From Eledone cirrhosa (Eukaryota), in assembly GCA_964016885.1 (NCBI GenBank), contig OZ024741.1:310124001-310188000 (forward strand): a DNA stretch of 64,000 bases. Direction: 5' to 3'. How positions within the stretch are numbered: position 1 is the stretch's first letter; each line of letters starts with the position of its first letter. The position numbers and the translations under genes were made by a program. Below the pieces are notes generated by a model that was not told the DNA's origin, ran no database searches, and worked only from the letters and a program-made list of their open reading frames with translations. Below are positions 20,323-62,847 of the stretch, one piece after another.

Positions 20323-21460
20323 CACAGGTTCTCAACCCATTTAGGCCAAAGCCCCCGACTGCAACTACAAATAAAAAAATTGTTAGTTTGCTTCATAACA
20401 ATAGCATATCCAAGTTTTTGAATAAATCGACTTATTTTAACTTTGACCTCATTTCAATGAGACGTTTGAGCTTCATGGAGTCTAGCTAACACTGACGTCG
20501 GGCTGAATTTTCTAAGATGAAGGATTTTTAATTATAATTACATTGTAGCAGTTGCGAGCCTTACTGTGCACTCTGGAAATAACGCCAAACCTCCTCTCGA
20601 CTAAGTATGAGCTTGGAAAAGGCAGAGCAAATTTCTTAGCCTCTGCATGTAGGAGTGGAAATCGATGCTGAAATTCCTCTTGCATCCAAAAAAAGGGTTC
20701 ACATATTTTGGAAAATCTAATTTTGATCATGTCAGCTGTTTGAAGTTCAATGAATTCTTCCTGAAATTTAACGTCCAAATCATTGACGTTAGCTATGAAG
20801 GGATCTGCTATCCACATTGGGATGTCCATCTGCAAAAGGTCAACAAACTGTTCTTCTCATGTTATCTTGTAGCGCATGGAGGTGAGCATTATAAATTTAG
20901 AGTTGAACATTGGCGACACTAGGAAAATTATAGAAGTCCCGTTGACAAAGATTCCTTTTGATGACATTCAATTTGGCCAGGAATGTTTTCACAGCATTCC
21001 TTGCTTTAAGCAAGGTGATCTTCTCTCCCTGCAAAGCCATAATGAGGCTATTGCATTTGTCAAAGATGTCGGCAAAGTAGGCACAGTCTTGCCTCACATC
21101 GAGGGTTTTCTTGTACAGTTCTGTGTTGCATCCTTGAAGAAACTCTGATAGAGTCGAACGGTTCAAAGAAGCAAGTAAGGCACTTGCGCTTTGAAAGCCA
21201 CCTCACTTCAGTATGAAGGAGCAACTCGAATTCTTCGTCAATATCTTGGCACAGTAGCCAGAAAATTCGTTCATTGAGGGCATCGCGTTTGATAAAATTA
21301 ATGACATCAATGGCCACCTGCAAGGACTTGTTCAGCTTCTTCGCAGTCAAGTGTTGTCGATGAATGACACAATGAACAGCAAATACAGATGGATTTCCTC
21401 TCTTCAGAAGTGAGACGAAACCCTTATGTTGGCCGACCATTGCTCTTGCGCCGTCCGTAG
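20323..21460 (-). mobile_element. hAT (Buster/Charlie/ZBED8-like) DNA transposon, 3' half, pseudogenised
   Basis: ORF pieces IATDGARAMVG, VHCVIHRQHL, LLHTEVRWLS, PFPSSYLVE and C-terminal HEAQTSH*; TIR-like cacaggttctcaacc at ~20323; 5' part lost at the junction with the Gypsy LTR. Confidence 0.88.
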
Positions 21461-22012
21461 CAATATTCAAGTTGAACATTGAATGATAAAATCTATAACA
21501 TGAAATATTCGTACAATGAGTTGGTGGCTCTACGATCCACGTAAATGCAAGTATCACAGAATACGATTATAATATAATTTGTATTGTATCTGAAAGATAC
21601 AATATGACAGACAGAATTGGTGCGTGTAAAATGCAAACAGTGTGAACTTACTATGTGTGTGTATTAGTATACTTTCTTGTCTTAGCAGTAGTAGGATTCA
21701 ATCAGCCAGGCGGGAATGGCGTGAGAAATTAGTGGGCAGACTGGTTTTTTCGTGGCGAGAGCGTGTAAATGAGACCTGTCTTGTCTGCAGTCTCACTTTT
21801 TCTGCCCGGCGCAAACAACCTTTGTATTTATAAGAGTTGCAGTTAGAAGGATAGATATATCATCTGACCTCTTTTCTGCCAGGCGTAAACAACCTCTGAC
21901 CTGTGTTTAGCATCTCCCAAGGGGTTGGTCTGCCGGGCGTAAACAACTAACCATGGCTTGTCCCAGAGGCTGGAAAGCTCAGATTCGGTTTCGAATCTTC
22001 GCCGCCGTTATA
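21461..22012 (-). repeat. 3' LTR of Gypsy A (truncated ~125 bp at its distal end)
   Basis: Aligns to 26548-27152, including the terminal agattcggtttcgaatcttcgccgccgt. Confidence 0.85.
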
Positions 22013-22336
22013 GTACCCTCTTCCAGTGAGAAAGCTAAAGATAAATTAAGATAGATATGACTAGAAAATCAAAAAAATAAAAATACATTAAAGTCATTTA
22101 CAAAATGGCTAAATGAAAGAAAACATGCAAAGCAAAACAAATTTACATGCAGGAAAATGTACTGTGATGTTACATAAAATTGAAAATGTTCATACGAAAA
22201 GTTCATTCATTTCATAGAAATGGAAAAATGTTCTTTTGTCTGTTCTTTTGATGTGTATGATGCACAGAGTCAATTAATTTGTGTGTAGCGATAGTTCATG
22301 ACCACAGAAATTGGCCGATTCGTTGAAATGTACAAA

Positions 22337-25300
22337 TTAGCCGAAATGTCGACCAGGTGCATAATTTGTACTTACCCGATAAACTTGTAAGTATCGCGTG
22401 GGCCATCGAACTGTTCTTCCAGATTTGGTGTGTCGGGGTTGTGCAGAATTTGTCGTGTTTGTGTCGGGCAAAGTTGGTGAGTTTGCTGGAGAAACGGTGG
22501 GTACTGGTGGTAAATCCTGTTCCATGAACACTTTTTTTAAACGGTCAATGGAGACAGTATATCGTTTCCCGTTCAAGTCGAGGACGAAATACTTAGGGCA
22601 TTTCTGTATCACCTTATAGGGCCCAGAATACGGTGGACGAAGTTCTGATAGAATACCGTCATTTCTAACGAAAACAAGCGTCTATGTATCAATGTCTTTT
22701 GGTATGTGCGAAGTAACGTGCTGTTGTTTAGGGGCTGAAGGAAACAGATGTGACATCGATGACCGTAAACGGTGCACATATTTTGTTGGGTCTGGAAATT
22801 CTTGTGGCGAAACAGGAGCGATCACTTGCCCGGGTAGAGCGAGTACGGTGCCATAAACTATTTCAGCCGGAGAATGTCCGACTCCCTCCTTATCAGTGGA
22901 ACAAATACCAAGAAGAATAAGTGGGAGGTATTCGAACCAGTTAGTAGAGTCTGCGTAAGCCTTGATGGCTGCTTTTAGCTGACGGTGGAAACGTTCTACC
23001 ATGCCGTTAGCTGCAGAGTGATACGCTGTTGTACGGATGTGTTTACACCCAAGGAGATGAGTCAGCTCGGTAAAGAGGTGCGAATCGAACTGACGTCCTC
23101 TATCCGTAGTGATGGTCGCGGGTGTGCTGCCGAAACGCGAAACCCAGTAAAACACTAGCGTTTTGGCGACAGTTTCCGCGGTAATATCCGTCAGGGGAAA
23201 AGCTTTTGGCCAGCGAGAAAATCTGTCAACACAGGTGAGAGGATGAATGTAGTTGTGAGAAGGAGGCAAAGGTCCAACGATGTCTATGTGCACATGTTGG
23301 AACCGTGCATCAGGTGTTGCGAAAGAACCGATCGGGGCTTTGATGTGCCGGTGAATTTTCGCCTTCTAGCACGCGATACAGTTCCTAGCCCATTCGCGGG
23401 TGTCCTTGTTGATGTTGGGCCACACAAAGCAAGCAACCATTAGTTTCTGCGTGGCACGGACGCCAGGATGTGCCAGAGAATGCAGTGCCGAAAAAGAGTT
23501 GTGTCGATGTTTCCGGGGCACGTATGGGCGCTCGTGGCCTGTGGAGATGTCGCACCAAATATAACCCGAAGAAGAGGGCAGCGAGCATTCCTGCAATTTC
23601 AAGGAGGATTTCCGTAGCTGTAGCAATTCCTCGTCATCCTGTTGATCCGCAGCAATCTTCTGGAGATCGATAGTGGCAGTGGTGTGGATTGCGTTAAGCT
23701 CCATGTGCGAGAGGGCATCAGCTGCTGAGTTGGTAGCACCCTTAATGTACCGAATGTCAGTAGTGTACTGAGAAATGAAGTCCAGATGTCGGACCTCCCT
23801 GGGTGAGTAGCGATCAGGCTTGGCGTTGAACGTGTACACTAGTGGTTTGTGGTCGGTGTATATGGAGAACATACGACCTTCTAGCATGTGTCGAAAATGC
23901 TTGACAGCAAGGTATGCTGCCAATAATTTACGACTGAATGTGCTGTACTTAGTTTCGGCGGGTTTTAATCGCTTAGAGAAAAAAGATACAGGGCACCAAA
24001 TATCGCCAGAGAGTTGTTGAAGCACACCCCAAACTCCGAAATCGGATGCATCAGTCAATAAACACATTGGGGCGTCAGGTTTGGGGTAACTTAGCATTGT
24101 AGCCTCGGACAACATTTTCTTCAACTCAGCGAAAGCGGTACATTCTTTTTCACTAAGATTGATGTTCGCGTTTTTGGTTGTATGCTGCCGCAGCAAATCT
24201 GTGAGCGGTTGGGCTGTCTCTGCACAGTGAGGGTATAAATCTTCTGTAGAAGTTCACCAGGCCAAGAAATTCTCTCAGTTTGCAGAGAGATGTGGGCTGT
24301 GGAAAATCAATGATGGATTTGACTTTCTCCTTAAGTGGGCGAATGCCATCTTCATCAATGATGTGTCCCAGAAAATGAAGGGACGCAACTTCGAACTCAC
24401 ACTTGCTGGGGTTGATAACAATTCCATATTCACGCAAACGTGCGAATAACAGGTGCAGGTACCTCTCATGTTCTTCATCGGAGCCGCTAACCACCAGTAA
24501 GTCGTCGATGTATGCGTATACAAAAGGTAGACCTCTGGTGACTGTATCGATGAATCGTTGGAATGTCTGCGCTGCATTACGCAACCCGACAGGCATACGC
24601 AGGAATGCGAACATTCCAAAGGGTGTTGTGACGGCGGTCTTCGGAATATCAACGGGCTCCACAGGTATCTGATTGAAAGCTCGCACAAGATCGATCTTCG
24701 AAAATATGTGAGCTCCGTGCAGTGAACTAGAGAAGTCCTGTAGATGAGGCACTGGATAAGGGTCAGGCACGGTGCAGTTTTTCAGTGCACGGTGGTCGCC
24801 ATAGATTCGCCAGTCGTTTGACGACTTCTTGGGTACACAATGTATGGGTGAGGACCAGTTGCTGCAGTATGATGCCGAGATCTAGTATGTGTTGAAATTC
24901 TTGTCTGACGGACTTCAGACGGTCTGATGGTAGCCTTCTTGGTCGTGCAGCGACAGGTGGGCCGTGTGTTTTTATGTGGTGGGTGACGTCATATCTTACA
25001 GGGCAGGCGTTGAATACTGGTCGAGCTACGTCTGGGTATTTGTTGATTATATAGCTGTGCCGGGTTGTTGTTGCCGATCGTGAAATAACTGGACTGACTG
25101 TGGCTGTCCGAGCGGCTATGCCGCGCACAGCGAGACCAGTGGAGTTGTCAACGAGTCATTGGTTTTTCAGGTCCACTAGCAGTGAGAAGTGCTGAAGAAA
25201 ATCAGCTCCTAAAATAGGAGTCGGTAGCTTAGCCACAATGAATACCCACTGGAAAGTGCGGCGTAGTCCTAAATTTAGTGTCAGGGACTGCTCTCCGTAG

Positions 25301-25520
25301 GTCGGAATATGTGAATGATTCACCGCTTGGAGCCAGGCTGGTGTTTCTTTCCTTTTTCCAGGAACGCAGGAAACCGGGATAATGCTGACTTCAGCACCGG
25401 TGTCGACCAGGAAACGCGTGCATGTGACGCGATCTTGGATGTAAAACAGGCGACTTTGATTATTAGGGCCAGAAAAGTCCGTCGCATTCAGTTTTCTGGC
25501 TGTGTCGTTTCCCTAATTCG
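22337..25520 (-). pseudogene. Gypsy A pol (aspartic protease, RT, RNase H, integrase), frameshifted
   Basis: FLVDTGAEVS (PR); [19 protein letters not shown] and YIDD (RT); TDASD and YTDHKPL (RNase H); [21 protein letters not shown] and NGMVERFH (IN). Confidence 0.9.
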
Positions 25521-25650
25521 ACATCGACACAAATGAACAGGGATGGCTGCTCTTGCGCGCCCGTCTTCCGAATTTTTGGTGGTACCAATACATTTCCGGT
25601 GAATCATGGGATGCGTTCGGACTTCTTGAGCAACCACCAAATCGGCGAGT

Positions 25651-26370
25651 TCAACTGTTAGACCGACGCGTAGCAGGGTTACCCAGTGATAAGGCCTGAA
25701 TTTGTTGCGTCAAGGCCTGTATCTGTGTTGTTTGCTGTGCCAGTAACTGGTGTAGATCGGGCATCTCTGTGGAACTGGAGGGCTGAAGAAAAGGATTGGT
25801 GGGAGGCACGGCTGGCGTCACATTCGCTAAAGTTGAGTGCGGATGTGGTACCTCCATGATCTTATCTGCCAGCTCGGTGAGTTCTTCTATGGTGGTGGAC
25901 TCCCTGGTGGATGCTAGTACAACTTGTGTGGCAGAAGGCAATCGCTGGAGGAAGAGTTGCTTGAAAATTTCATCCGGGAGTTTATGTTCACCCAGAAGCT
26001 GCTTCATTCGCCGTAGGAGTTGCGTCGGCTTTTTATCTCCTAATTCCTCCGATATGAGGAACTGGTGTAAACGCTTCTGCTGCGACTTCGACGTCCGCTT
26101 AACTAATGTTCTTTTAAATGTGTCATATGACACAGAGCCGGGTGGTGCTAAAATGAGGTCTCGAACCTCATTTATAATCTCTGGAGGCATCGAACCGATG
26201 ACATGTGTGAGACGGGATGCCTCGCTAACGATCCGGTTCGATGCGAACTGCGCTTCGATGTGTGCGAACCACAGTGTTGGATCGTGCACCCAGAATGGTG
26301 GAATCCTTAATGTAAATGCCGCCCTGACTGCCATTTCTGCCGTAGATGAATCGTCGTGTGCTAGAGACAT
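25651..26370 (-). CDS. Gypsy A Gag (capsid region open; a premature TGA precedes the CHCC-like nucleocapsid segment)
   Basis: IPPFWVHDPTLWFAHIEAQF...EELGDKKPTQLLRRMKQL...LFLQRLP motifs; the same frame continues after the TGA into YWYHQKFGRRARKSSHPC. Confidence 0.85.
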   Translation of the reverse strand: MSLAHDDSSTAEMAVRAAFTLRIPPFWVHDPTLWFAHIEAQFASNRIVSEASRLTHVIGSMPPEIINEVRDLILAPPGSVSYDTFKRTLVKRTSKSQQKRLHQFLISEELGDKKPTQLLRRMKQLLGEHKLPDEIFKQLFLQRLPSATQVVLASTRESTTIEELTELADKIMEVPHPHSTLANVTPAVPPTNPFLQPSSSTEMPDLHQLLAQQTTQIQALTQQIQALSLGNPATRRSNS

Positions 26371-26384
26371 CGTTTGTAGTGGAT

Positions 26385-26421
26385 GATCAGAAGGTTGTGT
26401 GTCTGTTTTACGGGATCACCA
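26385..26421 (-). promoter_or_regulatory. Primer-binding site of Gypsy A, tRNA-Trp, bipartite/extended
   Basis: Plus strand cgggatcacca (26411-26421) matches the tRNA-Trp 3' end CGGGGTCACCA; gatcagaaggttgtgtgt (26385-26402) matches tRNA-Trp GATCAGAAGGTTGCGTGT. Confidence 0.85.
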
Positions 26422-26423
26422 GT

Positions 26424-27152
26424 TGTAACGGATTATTATGTGTGTTTGTAACGATAAGTGGATGGATGGATGTAACTGTTGGTATGGTGGTTTCGATGTA
26501 AAGAAAAATACCAGGTTTGTGTTGTTACAAAGTTTATTTTATTATAACAATATTCAATTTGAATATTGAATGATAAAATCAGTAACACAAAATATTCATA
26601 CAATAATTTGGTGGCTCTTCGAGCCACGTAAATTCAAGTATCACAGAATACGATTATAATATAATTTGTACTGTATCAGAAAGGTACAATATCTGTAAAC
26701 AGAAATGGTGCGTGTATAAATACTCAACTCAGTATGAATGCGTGTGTGCGTATGAGTATATTTACTTGTTTGTATTGCAGGAGTCAGCGATCAGCCAGGA
26801 AGGCAGACTGGTTTTTCGTGACGAGAGCTTGTAAATGCGACTTGTCTTGTCTGTATATCACTTCTTTTCTGTCGGGACGTGAACAACCCCTGTATTTATA
26901 AGAATTGAAGTTAGAAGGATAGATATATCCTCTGAACTTTGGTTAGTCTCTCCCAAGGGATTAGTTTGCCAAGCGTAAACAAGTCAGAAAGATGGATATA
27001 TCCTCTGACCTATTTTCTGTCAGGCGTAAACACCTCTGACCTGTGTTTAGCCTCTCCCAAGGGGTTAGTCTCTTGAGCGTAATCAAGTTACTACGGCTTG
27101 TCCCAGAGGCGGGAAAGTTCAGATTCGGTTTCGAATCTTCGCCGCCGTAATA
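26424..27152 (-). repeat. 5' LTR of Gypsy A
   Basis: Plus strand begins TGTAACGG 2 nt from the PBS and ends CCGTAATA; carries an internal tandem duplication (~26910-27085) absent from the 3' LTR. Confidence 0.88.
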
Positions 27153-28334: not shown

Positions 28335-30848
28335 TAAGTATGTATGCGTGTATGAGAACAACTGGAAGGACTTCAGGAGCTCGGTCTATGAGGCTTCAGC
28401 AGAGGTCCTTGGCTTTGTCACAAGAAAACAAGGACTGGTTTGATGAGAATGACCAGGAGGTCAAGGCTCTGCTAGACAGAAAACAAAAGGCACTTGGTAC
28501 AGTTCTTAAAGGTGGTAGCTCTGTTGGTGACAATTATGAGCGTTACAGACAGGTAAAGAAGGAAGTGCAGGTGAAACTCAGGGCTATGCAAAATACCTGG
28601 TGGAGCAACAAAGCAGATGAAGTTCAAGTGGCATCTGACGGCAACAATGTGAAACTGCCGCACTTTCTACTCACAGAGGTGTATGGCCCTTTCAGCTCTC
28701 CAGTGGCCCCTTTGAGATCGAAAGATGGCAAGCAATTACTGCGCGACCCAAAAGACACTCGACAGATAGAGAGATCACTTTGATGAGCTCTTAAACCAGC
28801 CATCCCAGGTTGATGATGATTTCATTTGTTCCATTCCTATTGAACCAGTGAAGCATATGAGATGGCTAATGTATCTTCTCTTGCAGAGGGGACTTCTGTT
28901 GTGCATAAGCTGAACTGTGGTAAGTCTCCTGGTATGGATGGTCTGAGTGGAGCGGTTTTGAAGTGTGGTGGTGAAAACTTCACGCAGCGCCTGACTGACC
29001 TCATGAAAATGGTGTGGGAAGATGAGAATGTCCCACAAGAAGGATGCGCTCATGGTGATTCTCCATAAAGGAAAGGACGGCAAGGACAAATATGGCAATT
29101 ATCATGTCATATCCCTTCTTTCAGTAGTTGGTAAAGTCGTGTCGAATATTGATGGATAGATTGATCCCAAGAGTTGCTCTGAATGTGTTGCCTGAGTCGC
29201 AGTGTGGGTTCAGAAACGAAAGAGGAACAGTGGATATGATCGTTTCTGCTCGGCAGCTGCAAGAAAAGTGTATCGAACAATGTATGGACCTTTACCAGGT
29301 CTTTGTTGACTTGACAAAGGCCTTTGACACTGTCAATTCAACTGCGTTGTGGGAAAAAAATCCAAGGTAGGGTAGAAGATTCTGCATCTTTTCCATGATG
29401 ACATGAAGGCTTTGGTCAGTATTGGTGGTAGCATCTCTGAACCAATATCAGTTGAAAATCGAGTGAAGCAGGGGGACATTCCGGCTCCAACTCTGTTTTC
29501 CTTACATTTTACGATAGTGTTTCTCATGGCATTCAAATATTGTTCTCATGGGGTTTACATCAGGTATCGCACTTCAGGAAGGTTGTTCAACACCAGGCGC
29601 TTTGGTACAAGCACAAAGGTATTAACATCTATAATCCGAGAGTTTTTGTATGCAGACGACTGCGATCTTTTTGCACACTCACAAAGTGACATGCAGCATA
29701 TTATGAACTCTTTATCTGCAGCTTGCAGCACTTTGGGCGTCACAATAAGCTTGGAAAAGACTGTTGTGATGTATCAGCCAGTACCTGGAAACGAGTACAT
29801 TGCACCAAGTGTGTACGTGTACGGAAAGAAGCTAAAAGTTGCTGACAAGTTTGTTTACCTTGGTAGTACGTTGAACACTTTATGCACACATGATAATGAA
29901 ATATCCTTAAGAATCAAGAAAGCCAGTGATGCTTTTGGACGGCTGCATCAACGACGAGGTATCACTATCGAAAACAAGGTGAAAGTGTATCTGACTTGTA
30001 TCGTCTCCTCTTTACTTTATGTTTGTGAAACGTGGGTCACATACAGAAAGCACCTCAAGGATCTGGAGAGATTTCACCAACAATCTCTTCATAAGTTACT
30101 TGGGGTGTGGTGGAAAATGTTCGCCAGTGATTTGGAAGTTCTAGAACGGAGCAGGTGCGTGACTATAGAGAGCATAATCTTTCGGTATCGGTTGAGGTGG
30201 TGCAGTCACGTGGTCCGGATGTCTGATGATCGTATTCCAAAGCAACTTCTCTATGGAGAACTGTGTGAAGGAAGGCGACCACCACATAAACCAAAAAGGC
30301 GGTACCGGGACTGTGTCAGGAGCACCTTGGCTTGTGCTGGAATTTCATCTGACGAATGGGAGAAAATGGCTGGAGACGTTTGATCAAGTCAGGTGGTGAA
30401 CACTTTGAAACTCGTCGGAGAGAACACCTTACACTGAAATGGAAGGTAAGGAAAGGAGACTGTTCTAAACTGCCTGCTGTTGAAATCATCTGGTTTGCCA
30501 GCACTGTGGTCGAGTCAGCCTGAGCAAAGCTGGTTTGATTAGACATGAACAAAGTCATATCAGTAGACCTCATGTAGATTATGATCTGAAAAGGTGTAAG
30601 AAATGTACAAGCATGGGAGGTCTTAAAAGATACATGTGAACATACAGCCAGAACAAAGCAATGGAAGGTTTCAGGGGAGCCTAAAGTTGCCATGTGTGTG
30701 TCAGAGGGTGCAAGTATTTGGCTGGTTTAAAGAGTCACATTTGTGCTTCACATTTTTGAACATTTTATCGGGCGATGGCAATACTTGAACACGAGTTTGC
30801 AGCCATCATGTATGTATGTATGTATGTATGTATGTATGTATGTATGTG
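28335..30848 (+). mobile_element. RTE-clade LINE, 5'-truncated, frameshifted ORF with RT and C-terminal C2H2 fingers, (ATGT)n tail
   Basis: NKDWFDEND, GKSPGMDG, LPESQCGFR, FVDLTKAFD, VKQGD, YADD, FVYLGS, RLRWCSHVVRM..DRIPKQLLYGEL; the 3' end runs into (TGTA)n at ~30809-30845. Confidence 0.92.
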
Positions 30849-52637: not shown

Positions 52638-53513
52638 TCTATATATATAAAACTGTGGTTGTCTGTCTGTCTATCGATTTTTGGCACACATCTCCTCTTA
52701 GAATCTCTCACGGAATTGCACCGAAATTGCTATACTTGTACATTGAGCCCTAGCGAAGACATCGGAAAAAAAAATTTCAAATTGACCCACCCTATGTGAC
52801 GAAATCGAATATAATGTATCGATTTTTGAGCGTAAGTGATCAGTTATTTCCCTTTGTTCTGTTTACATTGAGCGTCTTACGTAAAAAATTACGCTGGCAA
52901 AATATTGACCTGCAAAATTCATCAGTTCGAACACTAAGCTTCCGTTTTGCTTCATTTCCATTTAAAAGCATTTTAAAACAATATTTTTACTTGAAAACAA
53001 GTCTATTTAAAGATTACGTAAAACAAGCAAATATTTCGTCGTTAGGCGTGCAGACAGACAGTCGTGCAGAGAGGTGATATAGGCGTGCAGACAGACAGTC
53101 GTGCAGAGAGGTGATATAGGCGTGCAGACAGACAGTCGTGCAGAGAGGCGATATAGGCGTGCAGACAGTCAGTCGTGCAGAGAGGTGATATAGGCGTGCA
53201 GACAGACATAACTGATAATTTGATTACGCTAATGTTTTTCTCTGCGTTGCAGTGTTTACATTTTCGATCTTTGTTAATAAATAACCAGTGCAGTTTCTAT
53301 CCCCAGCATCCTCTTTTGTTATAACATTCGGGTTATCGTTATGTTTTCTTAACTTCATAAGGCATATTGTTGGTTGAGGGAATATTAATCAAAAACACCA
53401 CATGCAAGTCTGCACAGTAGACACTACAGTTTTTAAGCCAAGAAAGAAACTTAACATTGTAACTTTAACACAGCTACTGAGCGACCCCGAGCAACGCGGG
53501 GCTTTACTGCTAG
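52638..53513 (+). mobile_element. Non-autonomous Helitron inserted in the PLE ORF
   Basis: A|TC 5' end, ccccg-agcaacg-cgggg hairpin, CTAG|T 3' end, no TSD; removing it restores the PLE reading frame. Confidence 0.88.
53043..53208. repeat. 37-bp minisatellite x ~4.5 inside the Helitron
   Basis: taggcgtgcagacagacagtcgtgcagagaggtgata starting at 53043, 53080, 53117, 53154 and 53191. Confidence 0.95.
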
Positions 53514-54219: not shown

Positions 54220-55937
54220 CAACACTAAGAGAATTTTGGCGCCAAACTTTTCCTTTTGAAAGAAAAATGGCGCCAAACTTTTCCTTTTGAAAGAATAATG
54301 TGATTTGTCACGGGATATTATCTCTAAATATGTGAATACGTACACAGCATTCTCCTCACGAAGGGCGAGAGTGGCGATCGCAAACATATATACATATACA
54401 CACAAACACACCACACATATATATATATATATACACGCAAAAACACACACATACAATAACGACGAGTACTTCGATTCTGGAGGGCGAATGATGGAGAAGA
54501 TGAAGCTCTCTGCCGCAGAATAAATGGTATTTAATTTTAATAATAATACTAATAATATATATATATATATATATATTTCTTAATTGAATTGATTATCATT
54601 ATCGTTTTTATGGCAAAAGATAGACAGAGAGGGAAAGAGATAGACAGAGGGAAAGATTTTGACATATATATATATATGTAGCGACGTGGTTAGTCAGTCT
54701 AGTCACTACTTCTGATCAGATCCGAGATTAGCCCTTAGAAGGACTTTTATCGCATACGGTCTGATCAGATCTGAAGATAGCCCTTAAAAGGACTGTTGTC
54801 GCATATAGCCTTTAAAAGAACTGTTGAGGATGGACAGACGAAAGCACAAGTTGAAAGGACGAAGCAAGGCGAGATGTAAATTCGATCAGCTATTTATTTT
54901 TACATGAAGCGACGATACGAGGTACAAGGCGTGTGTGCGTGACAAAGCGTGGCAGAGTAAAGGAACAACGATGCGCTAGCTGACTCTGCCAAAAGTCGAC
55001 TGGTGAAGTGTTTGGAACCACTCTATTTATACAGAAATAATCGTTTGATGTTTAGCCGATGTGTAGGCGTTTATTCTGGTAAGTTTTAAGGGTTCTTTTG
55101 TTTCACGTTGAGGTAGCTAGCTAACAGGTAGATGGCGTTGTATATTTCACAGATGTTATTTCCGGTGGCTGTACATTATCCCCCTGCCAGATCTTTTGTA
55201 TAACAAAAGAGCGAAATATCGAATAGTAATGGGCTAGTGGTGCATTTGTCATGACAATAGCCCAAGGAGTGTCCAGCATGTTGTGAAATTTCGTGATCAT
55301 CGAGTACAGGACAGAGTCGTTGTAGAGATGATATGGCAAGATGTGTGTGTCAGGAAGAGAAAAAAGAAATAAACTATAAAATGACTTTGACCAGATTTAT
55401 GCAGGCGTGATAAATGAGCCTGTTGCAATTTGGGTTGAGCTGCCTGTGAATTGCGTGACAAAAAGTCTAACTGGGCAGTGAAAATAACCGTAATGTGTGA
55501 ACTGAATGGCCGTAAGCATGCTGCCTAAAAGTAACAGTTTGCTCCACAGCATATGACTTGAGCGAATGCATGTAGTAAAAAAAAATAGCGAGGCATTCTC
55601 GAGCTATTGAGTGAATGTGTACGTGAAAAAAGTGTTTTGAGGCTGCGATTTGTGAAATGCGTGATCAAAGAGAAAACATTTTGTAGTGTAAGAGTTAGAG
55701 GGACACAAATATCTATTGCTCAGTGTATGAACTAAAAGGTGAAACAAACGTGGTTTTGTAGTGTGCATGAAAAACAGGATATGTACACGCCTTGTAAGTA
55801 TATACAAATTATGGCAATTACACAATCAATGTTACAGAACAAGAAAAGTATAAATTTTGCAAAACAAGAGAGTGAAGAAAAAAAAATGTTATACACAATG
55901 ATATACACAATGTTTGTTCTTAAATAGAGTTTGTAAT

Positions 55938-57525
55938 TATAGCGGACTACTCGTGTGTATGAATGTAACAAGGAGACATCGTTTGTGTGTATAATATTTA
56001 ATCAACAATTTAACAGTATAGTTGACATGTCAATGAATAAACGAAAGAATTAGGCAAAGTTAGTAGTTACCGTTTTGATTGCCAGGCAAACGCAGGCTAG
56101 CAGAAGACGCCTGGCGAAAGACAGGCGCCGGAAGGGCAAATGAGAGAGTGAGAACTTAAAGTTGTTAGTTTTATAGGGTTCTGACCGGAAGTTACAGAAA
56201 GGGTTCTACTTCCCGTCTAGATGTTGTTAATCTATTAGGGTTGTGAGTCACAACAAGGGAGGCAACTGCTACATAACCTCCCGCCAGAATTTTAGAATAT
56301 AAAAATCGAATGAAATATGTAGCAAGTTGGCGAGAATGTTGTAACAGGCATGAAAATTACGACAAAAGAATGTTTGCAAAAATCAATGATAGATGTCAAG
56401 GTAGCCAACCGCTCTTGGCCAGAGAACGACTGGACATCTATCTATCCATCACCCAAAGATACAATGTAATAAAGTAAGAGAAGAGCCCAAAGTTCAAATG
56501 TACAAAATATAGTTCACAGGTGTGCAATCACATGACAGCAGGAAAGAAAGTGTGTTCCAGAGAATGAATGCAGGTGATTTCTGTTCTGTGGTATATCGTG
56601 AAATTTCCAACCTCCGAATGGATTTTCTCACAGGAAGAGTGCTGCAAAAATAAATTCTCTGGCTTGTTCTGCTGGTTTTGGTTGTTGATGAAGCTGTGTT
56701 GCTGTTGATGTTGTTGTCTCGCGGAGTGAGCGTATTCGGTGTTTAAATTCACAGTAAAAAAAAAAATGTTCTGGGAAAAAATGAGTTGCGCAAAGTGTTA
56801 GAAATAACAGCCGAAGTTGATGGTCGATGTTGAGAATGCGTTGATCTGGAAGGGTCAAGAGGCCAGCGACCAAAGAAATAAGCATTCTGAATAAATGCGC
56901 AGTTTTCAACGGCAAATTTACGTGGTAAATTTTTAAACCGGCAAATAGGAGAATATAGCTTAAGGCTGAAGAATCCTTGGCGAGAAACGTTATCTCTGGC
57001 GTGCGGCTATCTCTGTGAGTCGAGATATCTCTGTGAGTCGAGAATTTGTGCTGCCTACACGTGCCAATACAAGGTTAAGTTAGGTTTAAAAAATAATATT
57101 TCTAACGCGCGAGAAAATGATAGTGCAAGTGTGAAAGTGGCAATGATGAAAAAGGAAGGCTTCACTTAGCATAATTATTGGTGTGAACTACTGGGTTGTA
57201 TGAAAGTAACAAGGAGATTTGGTTGCTGTGTATAATATTTAATTAACAATCATGGATATATATAGAACAGTATAGTTGACATGTCAAAGAAATAGATGAT
57301 AGAATGAAGCAAAGTTAGTAGTTACCGTTTTGATTGCCAGGCAAACGCAGGCTGGCAGAAGACGCCTGGCGAAGGCCAGGCGCCGGAAGGGCAAATGAGA
57401 GAGTGAGAACTTAAAGTTGTTAGTTTTATAGGGTTCTAACCGGAAGTTACAGAAAGGGTTCTACTTCCCGTCTAGATGTTAATCTATTGGGGTTGTGAGT
57501 CACAACAAGGGAGGCAACTGCTACA
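55938..57525 (-). mobile_element. Non-coding LTR mini-element, copy 2, nested in the 3'UTR of Gypsy B; TSD TAAT
   Basis: Reverse complement of the 40500-42322 element (repeats 57525-~57190 and 56273-55938) with ~270 bp less internal sequence; TAAT at 55934-55937 and 57526-57529. Confidence 0.88.
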
Positions 57526-57741
57526 TAATAAATAATGTTCATTATAAATAATGTTCTTCGTAACATGAGCACATGGTCACTAAAAATTGCAATTGTTCAA
57601 GCAGAAAGTTCATTGTATTTGAAACTGGAAATAGTAAACACAAGAAAAATGGAAATGTTTTGCACGAAGACTGATTAAGAAACTCACTTGAGGTTAACGG
57701 TAATTCACATATTGTGCCAACTTTGCGGGCCAATGGACGCG

Positions 57742-59311
57742 TCATCCGCTTCTCGTGACTGGAGATGAAACAGGTGGCTCGCTGTGACAGCAATCTGTTG
57801 GAGTTTCTGGTGTAGAGACTGTAACAGTATCCATGATGGCTTTTTTTAATCTGTCCACGCTGACAGAATTCTGTTTACCATCTAGATAGAGAATAAAATA
57901 TTTCGGATATTTTTTTAGAACACGATAAGGGCCAGAATATGTAGGTCGAAGATGAGCTGAGATGGTGACGTTTCGAACGAAAACGTGTGTCCAATCTTTA
58001 ATGTCTGAAGGTACGTGTGTGGCCGTGTTCTGTTGACGGGTGCTTGCAGGAGCAAGGTGAGACATATATTGTCGAAGACGGTGTACGTATGATCCTGGGT
58101 CTGGAACATCCTGAGGAGAGATGGGAGCCACCATCTGACCAGATAGAACCAGGGTGGTGCCGTACACTAATTCTGCAGATGTGTGTCCGAAATCCTCCTG
58201 AACGGTGGATCGAATGCCCAGAAGGATGAGTGGTAGGTATTCAAACCAGTGGGTCTTGTCTGGATATGCTTTTATTGCAGCTTTCAATTGGCGATGGAAT
58301 CTTTCCACGAGACCATTAGCTTGCGGGTGATAAGCTGTCGTGCGGATGTGTTTACATCCTAACAGGCGAGTCAGTTCCCTGAAGAGGTGGGAGTCAAATT
58401 GGCGTCCTCTGTCCGTTGTTATCTTCGCTGGGGCGCCATAACGTGATACCCAGTGTAAAACCAAAGTTTTAGCGACTGTTTCCGCTGAGGTATCATTTAT
58501 GGGAAAAGCCTCAGGCCAACTGGAAAAATCGATCTATGCAGGTGAGCAAGTGTGTGTAGTTCTGTGATGGTGGTAGCGGTCCGACGATGTCGATATGCAC
58601 ATGATGAAAACGTGCATCAGGTTGCGCGAATGTGCCGAGTGGAGTTTTGATGTGTCTGTGGACTTTGGCTTTCTGGCAGGCAATGCAGCTCCTGGACCAG
58701 TCGCGCACGTCCTTGTTAATGCTAGTCCACACAAAACGAGCAGAGATGAGTTTCTGTGTAGCCCGGATTCCCGGGTGAGACAAGCAGTGTAAAGCAGAAA
58801 AAACTTGTCGACGATGCATCTGTGGTACGTACGGTCGTTCATGACCGGTAGAAAGGTCGCACCAAATTTGTCCCGGAGAAGAAGGAATGGGAACTTGCTG
58901 AAACTTGAGGGATGGCGAATCTCGGAGCTTGATAAACTCTTCGTCAGTCTCTTGGTCAGCTGCGATCTGTTGAAGGTCGATGCCTGAATGCACATGTATT
59001 GCGTTCAGCTGGATTCGGGACAGGGCGTCGGCTGCTACATTGTCTGATCCCTTGATATGCCGAATATCAGTTGAATATTGGGAGACAAAATCCAGGTGTC
59101 GGAGTTCTCTCGGTGAATGTCAATCAGGTTTGGTACGGAACGCATAAATTAATGGTTTATGGTCCGTGTAGATCACGAAATCTGATCCTTCGAGCATGTG
59201 CCGAAAATGCTTAACCGAAAGATAGGTTGCCAAGAGTTCGCGGCCAAAGGTATTGTATTTCGTTTCTGCCGGTTGCAACCGCTTAGAAAAGAAGGATAAG
59301 GGTTGCCACAC
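57742..59311 (-). pseudogene. Gypsy B RNase H + integrase (broken by a few frameshifts and a stop)
   Basis: FGRELLA, YTDHKPL, HPG...[31 protein letters not shown] motifs across ORFs 59120-59311, 58511-58993 and 57742-58464. Confidence 0.9.
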
Positions 59312-61086
59312 GCCGTCGACATGTTGTTGTAGAACGCCTCCAACCCCGTGTCTGATGCGTCCACTAGCAGCGAAAGAGGAGCGCCAGACCTGGGGAAAAC
59401 GAGCATGGAAGCGTTTACCAACATTTCCTTCAGGCGGTTAAAAGATATTAATTCTTCGTCGTTCAGAGTGATCTCTTCGTTTTTGCGAGTCCGGTTACGA
59501 AGAAGGTCCGTGAGGAGTCTGGCTGCGTCGGAACAATGAGGGATAAAACGCCTATAAAAATTCACCAGACCGAGGAATTCACGCAGTTTCCGAAGTGATG
59601 TAGGTGCGGGAAAACTGCGGATAGCTTCTACTTTCTCGGGAAGTGGACGAATGCCGTCTTTATCGATGATATGCCCGAGAAAGGACAGTGAAGGAACGCC
59701 GAGAAGGCACTTGCTGGGGTTGATGATGATACCGTACTTAGCCAAACGTCGGAAAAGGATATCTAAGTGCTTCTCGTATTCATGCTCGGAAGTACTTGCT
59801 ACCAGCACGTCGTCAATATACGCGTATACGAAGGGTAGATCGCGTAACACGGTGTCAATAAACCGCTGAAAAGTTTGTGCAGCGTTGCGCAGACCGAACG
59901 GCATTCGCAGGAATTCGAATAAACCGAACGGTGTTGTGATTGCGGTCTTCGGAATGTCTGCAGGCTCCATAGGTATCTGGTTATATGCACGCACCAAATC
60001 TACCTTGGAAAAGATGCGTGCGCCTTGCAGAGAATCAGAAAAATCGTGCAGGTGAGGTACAGGGTAATTATCGGGCACTGTAGAATTGTTATGTGTACGA
60101 TAATCCCCACATGGTCGCCAATCATTCTCGTTTTTTTTAGGAACAAGGTGTAGGGGTGCAGACCAGTTGCTGGAGGAAGGGCGAATGATTCCGAGGTCCA
60201 GCATGTGTTGGAACTCATGCTTGGCGATTCTCAATCGGTCTGGAGGCAGTCTCCTTGGTCGGGCAGCTGTGGGTGGTCCCCTTGTCTCGATGTGGTGCGT
60301 GACACTATGCTTAATGGGACCATCCTTAAATACCGGGCGAGTGATGTCTGGGTATTTCTGGAGAATGCCGTTGTACCGCGAAGGTTCTGACTGGCAAATT
60401 ACAGGGCTCACTGGGGATTGCGTGGTAAATATACCTCTCACAGTGAGGTTTGTGGTGGTGTCGATAAGCCTCCGGTTCTTCATATCCACCAGAAGGTTGA
60501 AGTGGTGGAGAAAATCGGCTCCTAGGATAGGGGTCGGCAGGTCTGCCACGACGAACACCCATTGAAAACGCCGCCTCAGGCTTAAATTGAGGGTCAGGGA
60601 TTTCCCCCCGAAAGTGGGAATTGACGATCGGTTCACTGCCTGCAGAAAGGACGGGGTTGGGTGTCTTTTTCCCGAGATTAGTGAAACAGGAATAACACTA
60701 ACCTGGGCTCCTGTATCCACGAGGTAACGGATGCCTGTCGCCTGGTCGTTAATAAAAAATAGACGACTTTTCTTTTCAGTACCAGGGGTGAACGTCGTCG
60801 CCAGGCCCTGGGTGGCATTCCGGAAAGAGCACGGGGCCTTGCACTTAGATGCCTGTGCGCCGAAATTTGTTTGATACCAGCAGATGTTGCCAGGCACACG
60901 ATTTTGACTGGGACTACTGGATCTTCGACTGTGAAAAGGCCTGGATCGACTGTTGCTGCGTCGCCGGTGTGTTTGAAAGGTCAAGTTCTCTACTTGATTC
61001 GGGAGGGCTTTAATTTGACCAACCCGCTCTCTGATCATAGCCCGCAGCTCTGAAATCACGGCCGCTGTCGTTTGTGACATGTCCAT
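59173..61086 (-). CDS. Gypsy B fused truncated-Gag(NC)-protease-RT ORF, 637 aa
   Basis: [18 protein letters not shown] (CHCC-like, H->Q), [31 protein letters not shown]; shifts out of frame after VDASDTG at the start of RNase H. Confidence 0.9.
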
Positions 61087-61111
61087 GTTGATATTTTCTT
61101 AGGTGCTGTCT

Positions 61112-61143
61112 GGTTGCGCGTTCGAGTCACGTTCGGGTCACCA
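61112..61143 (-). promoter_or_regulatory. Primer-binding site of Gypsy B, extended 32-nt tRNA-Trp match
   Basis: Plus strand ggttgcgcgttcgagtcacgttcgggtcacca versus recalled metazoan tRNA-Trp GGTTGCGTGTTCAAATCACGTCGGGGTCACCA; 2 nt from the LTR. Confidence 0.9.
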
Positions 61144-62023
61144 ATTGTAGCGACGTGGTTAGTCAGTCTAGTCACTACTTCTGATCAGATCCGAGATTAG
61201 CCCTTAGAAGGACTTTTATCGCATACGGTCTGATCAGATATGAAGATAGCCCTTAAAAGGACTGTTGTCGCATATAACCCTTAAAAGAAATGTTAAGGAT
61301 GGACAGACGAAAGCACAAGTTGAAAGGACGAAGCAAGGCGAGATGTAAATTCGATCAGCTATTTATTTTTACATGAAGCGACGATACGAGGTACAAGGCG
61401 TGTGTGAGTGACAAAGCGTGGCAGAGTAAAGGAACAACGATGCGCTAGCTGACTCTGCCAAAAGTCGACTGGTGAAGTGTTTGGAACCACTCTATTTATA
61501 CAGAAATAATCGTTTGGTGTTTAGCCGATGTGTAGGCGTTTATTCTGGTAGGTTTTAAGGATTCTTTTGTTTCACGTTGAGGTAGTTAGCTAACAGGTAG
61601 ATGGCGCTGTATATTTCACAGATGTTATTTCCGGTGGCTGTACATATATATATATGATAGAAAGAAGAGAAAAAAACGAGACCCTTAGAAACGAATAAGA
61701 GTCATCAAAGCGATCATATGCATTGCTTTAAACTGTAATGCGAAGGGATACACTAGTATTTGAGGTATAATCATTTAGGATTTTAACCCTCGGACTTTTC
61801 ACTCCCGGTTTTGAAATTTAGGGGTGACTGGGAATATTACATAATGTAGGGATTTTTTTTTCCTTTTCTATCATTTCTTATTTATGTATTTATATATTTA
61901 TTTATCTACTCTCGTGATTGATATTCCAACAAATGTTAGGGGTGTATTTTGGTTTTTTATTATGTCAGGTATAGCATCCAAAAATTTCTCCCTTCCTCCA
62001 ATATATATATATATATATACAAA

Positions 62024-62402: not shown

Positions 62403-62847
62403 ACGAGCAGTGTCTTGACCGAACAACTGCGATACTCATCGTCGAAAGCGGATGTCCTCTCCAGTCTCTTATTTATTACACCGATAACAAAGATAGGATA
62501 ATCATGGCATGAACGCCTTTCCAGTAATACACTAGCCTTGTGCCAAAAGTAGAAACAATTATATCTGCTGAATCAGAGATAGACTAAGGATAAAATGCAC
62601 CTTAAAGAAATCTGATATTTGAAACGAGCAGTGTCTTGTTGACCGAACAACTGCGATACTCATCGTCGAAAGCGGATGTCCTCTCCAGTCTCTTATTTAT
62701 TACACCGATAACAAAGATAGGATAATCATGGCATGAACGCCTTTCCAGTAATACACTAGCCTTGTGCCAAAAGTAGAAACAATTATATCTGCTGAATCAG
62801 AGATAGACTAAGGATAAAATGCACCTTAAAGAAATCTGATATTTGAA
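62403..62847. repeat. Near-perfect tandem duplication, 221-bp unit x2
   Basis: 62403-62623 repeats from 62624 with only a 3-nt insertion visible. Confidence 0.9.

Follow-up and report, generated by a model that had tools for sequence, protein, structure and literature searches.

A capsid-less subfamily of CsRn1-like Ty3/Gypsy retrotransposons in the octopus Eledone cirrhosa and its likely dependence on complete relatives

Gag-deficient, non-autonomous retrotransposons of the long terminal repeat (LTR) class are already known, with Tos17, BARE-2, Cinful and IAP 1-delta-1 as described cases, and a lineage from the octopus Eledone cirrhosa joins them. This lineage is represented in a 64,000-nt stretch of contig OZ024741.1 (the window, whose positions serve as coordinates throughout) by an LTR retrotransposon at 54677-61644, recognized by its LTR pair and Pol domains; it lies on the minus strand, as do all parts of it described below. 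This window copy is a dead member of a CsRn1-like Ty3/Gypsy subfamily of about 120 copies that lacks both the capsid and the -1 frameshift site, and we think it likely that the subfamily is a non-autonomous companion of complete members of the same family, which are predicted to provide it with Gag and, in some cases at least, also with Pol in trans.

The barley element BARE-2, in work by Tanskanen et al. from 2007, is said to form a Gag-deficient subfamily that shares its LTRs with the autonomous partner BARE-1 and outnumbers or parasitises it. BARE-2 is a plant Copia element, and its Gag was reportedly lost via the start codon and not by an in-frame excision of the capsid as in the octopus lineage. 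The rice Ty1/Copia element Tos17 (and likewise RN304) is described as lacking gag, and a related complete element is proposed as its source of Gag (PMC3977881). Tos17 resembles the octopus elements in combining one long pol open reading frame (ORF) with an LTR, a primer-binding site (PBS) as well as a polypurine tract (PPT) that are all intact, but no capsid-coding gag. It differs, as far as described in that paper, in being a Copia element without a gag remnant, in its two copies and in a proposed partner, Lullaby, with 57% DNA identity, whereas the octopus elements belong to Gypsy, keep a Gag knuckle that is fused to Pol, are present in more than 100 copies and have partners that are 93-96% identical and recombine with them. 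The mouse IAP 1-delta-1 elements carry a gag-pol fusion made by deletion, are non-autonomous and are given as the source of most new insertions, with a reported effect in cis (PMC6466679). An internal deletion leading to a Gag-Pol fusion ORF is common to both systems, but the 1.9-kb deletion of the mouse elements removes parts of gag and pol, so that Pol is also needed in trans according to the same report, while the octopus fusion stems from a separate 17-nt loss of the frameshift site and leaves pol whole. In maize, Cinful (pol only) and Zeon (gag only) are presented as copies of one family that encode different parts and are mutually dependent (PMC8547701). Gag-only partners with the same LTR and PBS had also been envisaged in a preliminary description of the octopus locus, but the partners found are complete elements, and no search aimed at Gag-only partners was made. 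The opposite partition is described for Athila of Arabidopsis, whose non-autonomous LTR lineages are long-lived, retain part of their ORFs and undergo recombination with other lineages; it is pol that the non-autonomous families have lost, while gag is still there, accompanied by env or not (PMC2410132).

Both fused and -1 frameshift gag-pol layouts are described for the CsRn1 clade, with small indels at the frameshift site named as the route from one layout to the other (PMC2582038), and the clade is reported as common in cephalopods (PMC6238403). Judged by its sequence hallmarks, which are the CX2HX9CX3C (CHCC) Gag knuckle as defined in PMC2582038 and target-site duplications (TSDs) of 4 bp, the octopus family appears CsRn1-like. 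The fused forms of the clade, as presented in PMC2582038, keep a whole Gag, which the octopus deleted form does not. A Clonorchis sinensis gag-pol with DUF7041, matched at 41% identity, is only a hint of CsRn1 kinship, and a protein search with the first 260 residues of a deleted-type ORF reached a best identity of 61% and is uninformative on other species. The term "non-autonomous" does not occur in the mollusc paper PMC6238403, and no wider literature search for the exact architecture was made.

The two deletions and what they removed

The start codon of the window element at 61086 opens a frame of 637 aa (59173..61086) that holds a remnant of Gag, the protease, the reverse transcriptase and the start of RNase H. 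An Arg/Ser-rich stretch is followed in this frame by the Cys/His knuckle CX2HX9CX3C (60829..60882; motif definition from PMC2582038), then by the aspartic protease domain (residues 118-197, 60496..60735; Pfam RVP, E=8.3e-5) and by the reverse transcriptase domain (residues 315-474, 59665..60144; Pfam RVT_1, E=2.5e-31). The preliminary description had compared this frame with Gypsy A, another element of the window (about 21458-27152, minus strand), and had deduced that about 180 aa including the capsid region are missing in frame, together with about 20 nt that contain a GGGAAAC site. GGGAAAC is likewise present at the gag-pol junction of Gypsy A. The direction of this comparison was right, but Gypsy A belongs to a different family, as its 67% DNA identity with the window element is confined to pol, and it was rejected as a yardstick. 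Better relatives came from a search of the genome with the Gypsy A Gag, which gave 151 matches in several identity classes. Among 20 matches fetched from the lower classes, nine from the 49-55% class have the LTR, PBS, leader and pol of the window copy at 93-96% identity and carry extra sequence past codon 10. A Gag-competent relative with matching LTR, PBS and pol is hence present in the same genome.

Aligned at base level with these complete elements of its own family, the window copy lacks 567 nt, or exactly 189 codons. In the complete elements this segment is bounded by a 7-nt direct repeat, CCGAGAT, of which the window type retains a single copy (61055..61061) that reads CCGTGAT in the window copy itself. 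The second loss amounts to exactly 17 nt; it is bounded in the complete elements by a CCAGGG repeat, of which again one copy remains (60806..60811), and it comprises the GGGAAAC slippery site and a spacer. Both earlier estimates were thus sound and could be made precise. The gag of the complete elements (293 aa) ends with ..CAG GGA AAC GGG CAG ACC AGG GCC TAG, where G GGA AAC, read in the frame of gag, is a heptamer of the standard X XXY YYZ kind, with pol in the -1 frame and a hairpin predicted 6 nt downstream of the heptamer (z=-2.3; 5 of 200 shuffles fold equally well). Since 17 is 18 minus 1, the removal of these nucleotides shifts the frame just as a -1 slip would, which joins Pol to the Gag remnant in one ORF.

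The complete Gag matches Pfam DUF7041 with residues 26-108 (E=2e-25), and the 567-nt deletion, which corresponds to Gag residues 11-199, covers this match. An AlphaFold model of the complete Gag, built from 72 aligned homologues and with a mean predicted local distance difference test score (pLDDT) of 74.8, consists of a helical region (34-177), a single long helix (201-231) and the knuckle (262-279). A structural alignment of this model with 48,161 solved chains returned only retroviral, retrotransposon or Arc-type capsids as its best 30 matches, all of them within residues 7-191. Examples among these 30 are rat Arc (Z 9.3, the best value), the capsid (CA) of murine leukaemia virus (MLV; 8.7), the C-terminal domain of MLV CA (Z 8.2, root-mean-square deviation 2.8 over 77 residues), Copia, dArc1, the N-terminal domain of Ty3 CA and PEG10; the Z values are moderate for helical proteins, and it is the uniformity of the list that carries the argument. 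The deletion takes out the whole capsid-like helical region but spares the long helix, the Arg/Ser-rich part and the knuckle. The CX2HX9CX3C motif of this knuckle is present in the complete Gag, and 19 of 21 deleted copies have all four of its ligands in frame. With this loss, the deleted type cannot encode a capsid-forming Gag.

Copies, ages and exchange with complete elements

Two samples of copies were compared. A 501-nt query spanning the region yielded 610 first-look candidates, with 40 scored matches of 94-100% identity among them, and the first sample consists of the window copy and 20 copies fetched whole, which were picked as the best matches to the window; all 21 have both deletions with identical breakpoints. 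The second sample consists of 19 copies from exact junction matches that were not picked for likeness to the window. With seven of these assigned from alignment, 16 of the 18 classifiable copies are doubly deleted, two have the capsid deletion only and one further copy (L179) was left undetermined. Taken together, 37 of 39 classifiable capsid-deleted copies also lack the 17 nt. L034 (a duplicate of L033) and L041 (rearranged) were left out of the trees, copies that cover less than about 2.4-2.9 kb of pol were left out of the tree and of the pol alignments, and L188 and L179 were dropped before the counts. Genome-wide pattern counts, with two mismatches allowed and with reversed controls that gave zero, found 136 sites on many contigs for the capsid-deletion junction, 51 for the complete-gag junction and 57 for the undeleted slippery region, and we put the doubly deleted form at about 120 copies.

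Matching 4-bp TSDs flank the element in 13 of 17 rows; eight of these TSDs are distinct and do not consist of TA only, and GATA, TACA, CATA, GATG, CAAA, CATC, TGTC and GACG are among them. The remaining rows are three copies with (CA)n after the 3' LTR and one that runs directly into a second copy. As deleted copies at different loci carry different TSDs, the capsid-less form has replicated many times. The preliminary description had asked whether the two deletions recur in several copies with different TSDs or are private to this locus; both samples and the 136 junction sites show that they are not private. The two LTRs of an element are 90.2-99.6% identical to each other in 16 deleted copies, and 92.8-100% in 12 complete copies. 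A gag ORF of at least 293 aa is retained in 11 of the 20 sampled complete elements, and pol is uninterrupted in none of the 40 deleted (21+19) and none of the 20 complete copies, the longest ORFs having 1060, 1045 and 859 aa. Two or three pairs of copies are probable segmental duplicates (L033/L034, probably L025/L026, and L032/L037).

The two deletions are separable. Among 17 slippery-site matches that could not be paired with a complete-gag junction, 13 combine the capsid deletion with an intact frameshift site, which together with the two from the second sample makes at least 15 copies with the capsid deletion only. Conversely, at least four copies have a whole gag without the 17 nt, as seen in four of 11 fetched complete-gag junctions that had no slippery-site match. 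Complete, capsid-deleted, frameshift-site-deleted and doubly deleted forms thus coexist in one genome. Several of the copies with only the capsid deletion are old, with LTRs about 76-80% and pol about 89-91% identical to the modern type, own LTR pairs that are 81-97% identical and a full-length pol that has remained collinear. There are also young recombinants, in which the LTR pairs are 99.4% and 98.8% identical. All capsid-deleted copies have the same breakpoint, and a marker 36 nt from the capsid deletion is found in 32 of 34 deletion-bearing and in none of 18 capsid-bearing copies. The identical breakpoints and the linked marker argue that the capsid deletion arose once. More than one block haplotype, including the full-like L156 and L157, carries the 17-nt deletion, which may have arisen repeatedly or have been transferred by recombination.

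In a tree of pol, deleted and complete copies are intermixed at every level of a ladder-like topology, with old deleted and old complete copies together at its base, and an approximately unbiased (AU) test rejects the deleted copies as a single clade (delta lnL 143, p=0.00025). At 42 pol sites, of which 27 are not in a CpG, the same pair of letters is polymorphic among deleted and among complete copies. Near-fixed differences between the groups, defined as a difference in allele frequency of at least 0.8, fall almost entirely between the two deletions, with 24 of 25 in the first sample; in the second, 15 of 16 lie in positions 1001-1500 of the complete reference L101, where the block between the deletions is located, one in 501-750 and none in the other about 5 kb. 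When doubly deleted copies are compared with modern complete ones, the synonymous divergence is 0.283 in this block and 0.062 in pol. The differentiation of deleted and complete copies is limited to this block of about 250 nt, and five mosaic copies (L123, L124, L130, L154 and L155) switch haplotype within it. The simplest reading of these sequences is that deleted and complete lineages have repeatedly recombined, presumably through template switching between co-packaged RNAs.

Selection on pol was assessed from nonsynonymous (N) and synonymous (S) variants at non-CpG sites in 27 doubly deleted and 19 complete copies, with a neutral expectation by sites of N/S about 3.2. Singletons gave N/S 3.17 in the deleted (419 N, 132 S) and 3.08 in the complete copies (274 N, 89 S), and variants common to both groups gave 1.02 (94 N, 92 S). 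Variants found in at least two deleted copies only gave 2.14 (60 N, 28 S), those in at least two complete copies only 1.33 (16 N, 12 S). The deleted-only class is not different from singletons (p=0.12) but differs from the variants common to both groups (p=0.006), while the complete-only class differs from singletons with p=0.04. Purifying selection on pol within the deleted lineage, which the preliminary description had named as a test, is therefore not shown by these counts (N/S 2.14 against 3.1 for singletons). We conclude that the constraint signature of pol belongs to the pool that is common to deleted and complete elements. The copies L174 and L175 have two transversion stops in pol and other rare letters in common and possess unrelated 5' flanks, which means that a pol-broken source gave at least two insertions and that Pol can come in trans. 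A reading under which no pol lesions are inherited was withdrawn when these common stops were found in the larger sample. As a separate observation, the independent doubly deleted copies L046 and L180 have the same 1-nt deletion in pol, and in L046 only, a 1-nt insertion 77 nt further on restores the frame and yields the longest ORF seen (1060 aa). For the Gag remnant, the ratio of nonsynonymous to synonymous substitution rates (dN/dS) is 0.35 against modern complete copies and 0.52-0.54 against old ones, compared with 0.28 between complete and old complete copies.

The window copy and its surroundings

The layout of the window copy is that of a Ty3/Gypsy element, with paired TG..CA LTRs, a PBS behind the 5' LTR and a PPT before the 3' LTR. 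The 5' LTR (499 bp, 61146..61644, ends read from the sequence) and the 3' LTR (54677..55175), each of about 500 bp, were aligned as a pair and are identical at 492 of 504 aligned positions. Two nt past the 5' LTR begins a PBS-like stretch of 25 nt, TGGTGACCCGAACGTGACTCGAACG (61119..61143, complementarity about 25 nt), which starts with TGGTGACCC and ends 32 nt upstream of the start codon. Its start may be of the tRNA-Trp type that is characteristic of the CsRn1 clade. The extended complement of 21 nt matched no tRNA gene when compared with the tRNA genes of the assembly, and the patterns matched only copies of the element. The PPT, GGCAGGGGGA, was read at 55179..55188, a few bases ahead of the 3' LTR. 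Pfam matches in the ORFs of the window, and in the 1060-aa frame of L046, gave the Pol order of protease, reverse transcriptase, RNase H and integrase (in L046 RVP, RVT_1, RT_RNaseH, Integrase_H2C2, rve). In the window copy, RNase H and integrase lie in frames other than that of the 637-aa ORF, and the integrase (57742..58993) is split over two frames, the zinc-binding part (Integrase_H2C2, E=8.6e-17) being followed by the core (rve, under its cut-off).

The frame, described as open in the preliminary account, is so up to residue 637, but beyond this point pol is broken by two CGA>TGA (CpG) stops, two 1-nt frameshifts and a nested insertion of 1.59 kb, and the window copy is dead. Of the parts that had been called intact, the LTRs, the PBS and the PPT are present, but the TSD, TATA, is embedded in a (TA)n run and is uninformative for this copy. 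The His codon of the knuckle reads CAA (Gln) at 60871-60873 in the window copy only among 21 copies, and the exchange was consequently rejected as a trait of the lineage. The nested insertion (55938..57525) is likewise private to the window copy and not part of the family structure, since it is missing from all of the 16 copies, out of 20 others, that extend past that point and L046 has the empty site with a 4-bp overlap. The idea that these extra 1.59 kb behind the integrase might represent a relocated capsid could thereby be rejected. The insertion itself is non-coding, shows a 4-bp target overlap and has terminal direct repeats of about 340 bp that are 88% identical and thus less alike than the LTRs of the host element (98%). 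A stretch of about 300 nt, 83% identical to both terminal repeats, lies inside a copy of another Gypsy family (L086).

About 40-50% of the sampled insertions of the family lie within (TA)n microsatellites, suggesting that such targets are preferred; examples are the window copy (61645-61660 and 54660-54676) and L035, L036, L039, L045, L047, L103, L106, L109, L112, L174, L176, L186 and L187. Several family copies have (CA)n directly after the 3' LTR without a matching TSD. In L036 (G000:C1630) another copy begins with its PBS and leader immediately behind the 3' LTR, so that the two form a tandem pair with a common LTR. Just beyond the window element, at 53043-53227, lies a tandem repeat of about five 37-bp units with 97-100% identity, and a 209-bp segment is found twice within 62415-62847, in copies that are 100% identical and 224 bp apart. 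Gypsy A represents another family with a DUF7041 Gag and is an older element, with LTR pieces of 78-89% identity, a gag ORF of 254 aa that is still open and a pol in at least six frame pieces, and its Gag has more than 100 matches in the genome at 85% identity or higher. The open frame of 335 aa at 29376-30383 (plus strand) contains a reverse-transcriptase-like YADD motif and is likely a fragment of a non-LTR element. Open frames at 20512-21566 (minus strand) resemble what we take to be C-terminal parts of a hAT-type transposase.

Explanations and meaning of the lineage

In the explanation that we favour, that of a non-autonomous companion of the complete elements, each deletion would have arisen by a jump of reverse transcriptase between short direct repeats of its template. 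Deleted and complete RNAs would then be packaged together in particles made of the complete Gag, and template switching within such particles would keep LTRs and pol common to both. With the 17 nt lost, Pol would no longer depend on frameshifting but would be made constitutively as a fusion with the knuckle, to the possible advantage of the deleted RNA. Several points weigh against this explanation. Dependence on Gag in trans is predicted from the missing capsid fold and from analogy with the systems described above, and for a mobility that would depend on the proteins of the partner the signs are indirect, namely the recombination with complete elements and the pol-broken source that gave two insertions. 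The family may no longer be active, because an uninterrupted pol is found in none of the 40 deleted and 20 complete copies. Besides those of L174 and L175, the common lesions are CpG stops, indels in homopolymers or dinucleotide repeats and single coincidences, a pattern that would also fit sources with a mostly intact pol. The dN/dS of the Gag remnant, which is 0.35-0.54 and not 1, and the knuckle kept in 19 of 21 copies indicate that the remnant may exceed the needs of a passive parasite. The first sample, made up of the best matches to the window, overstated the divergence of the block (24 sites against 15), and the exchange could also have occurred by gene conversion between genomic copies and not through co-packaging. 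A more far-reaching version, which we consider tentative and rather improbable, sees the capsid-less lineage as a long-lived obligate recombining satellite of the complete parent, in which only the about 250 nt between the deletions evolve separately and the rest is pooled by template switching in common particles. The later loss of the frameshift site would then have made a knuckle-Pol fusion that marks its own RNA in cis, letting the satellite outnumber its parent.

It is possible, though we doubt it, that the deleted elements are a semi-autonomous Pol-only lineage in which the knuckle-Pol fusion acts in cis, the own pol is under purifying selection and only Gag is borrowed. Full-length pol has persisted for as long as the capsid-deleted lineage has existed, most of the disabling lesions occur in one copy each, the remnant has a constrained dN/dS and a retained knuckle, the doubly deleted form prevails over the capsid-only deletion (16 against 2 in the junction sample), and an action in cis is reported for the fusion protein of mouse IAP 1-delta-1 (PMC6466679), all of which would agree with such a lineage. 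However, the 60 N and 28 S deleted-private variants outside CpG are like singletons and unlike common variants, L174 and L175 descend from a source with two pol stops, and gene flow from complete elements alone can make pol look constrained. A selected Pol-only lineage needing Gag in trans was also what the preliminary description had proposed; its replicating capsid-less lineage and its Gag-competent partners are borne out, whereas selection on the own pol is not established and the deletions, which it had taken together, are separable.

The deleted copies might instead be recurrent dead-end products, with the repeats as deletion hot spots and each copy as a defective product left by a single round of replication of a complete element, and not as part of a lineage that propagates itself. 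In favour of this are the short direct repeats that bound both deletions, the presence of the 17-nt deletion on two or more kinds of block haplotype, among them the full-like L156 and L157, and the mixing of deleted and complete copies in the pol tree. The block adjoining the capsid deletion nevertheless differs from contemporary complete elements at 15-24 near-fixed sites (synonymous divergence pS 0.283), the linked marker separates deletion-bearing from capsid-bearing copies (32/34 against 0/18), and old and young capsid-deleted copies have the same breakpoint in a graded series of haplotypes. This explanation is therefore very unlikely overall, and for the capsid deletion a dead-end origin is strongly disfavoured. 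Still less credible is that the remnant of 100 residues, with its long helix, Arg/Ser stretch and knuckle, suffices, when fused to Pol, to reverse-transcribe and integrate the element without any capsid shell. The remnant is under some constraint and the deleted form is the most numerous, but complete elements of matching age stand beside the deleted ones at each level of the pol tree, exchange with them is pervasive, and we know of no capsid-free replication of an LTR retrotransposon. Finally, an assembly artefact or a spread by segmental duplication only can practically be dismissed. Two or three pairs do resemble segmental duplicates and homopolymer frameshifts may be assembly errors, but against this stand the 136 junction sites on many contigs with a control of zero, the distinct TSDs and the contigs of four public runs that span both junctions, even if these possibly derive from the assembled sample; for the family as a whole, this explanation is already refuted.

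The companion lineage of E. cirrhosa is a clean cephalopod, and thus animal, example of a Gag-deficient LTR retrotransposon lineage, in which both founding deletions can be read to the base and all four structural combinations are still found in one genome. For genome annotation it means that a third or more of the pol-bearing copies of this family are not autonomous, and trees based on reverse transcriptase would wholly miss the split between deleted and complete elements. As the differentiation is limited to the short block between the deletions, past recombination between helper and parasite becomes measurable from sequence alone.

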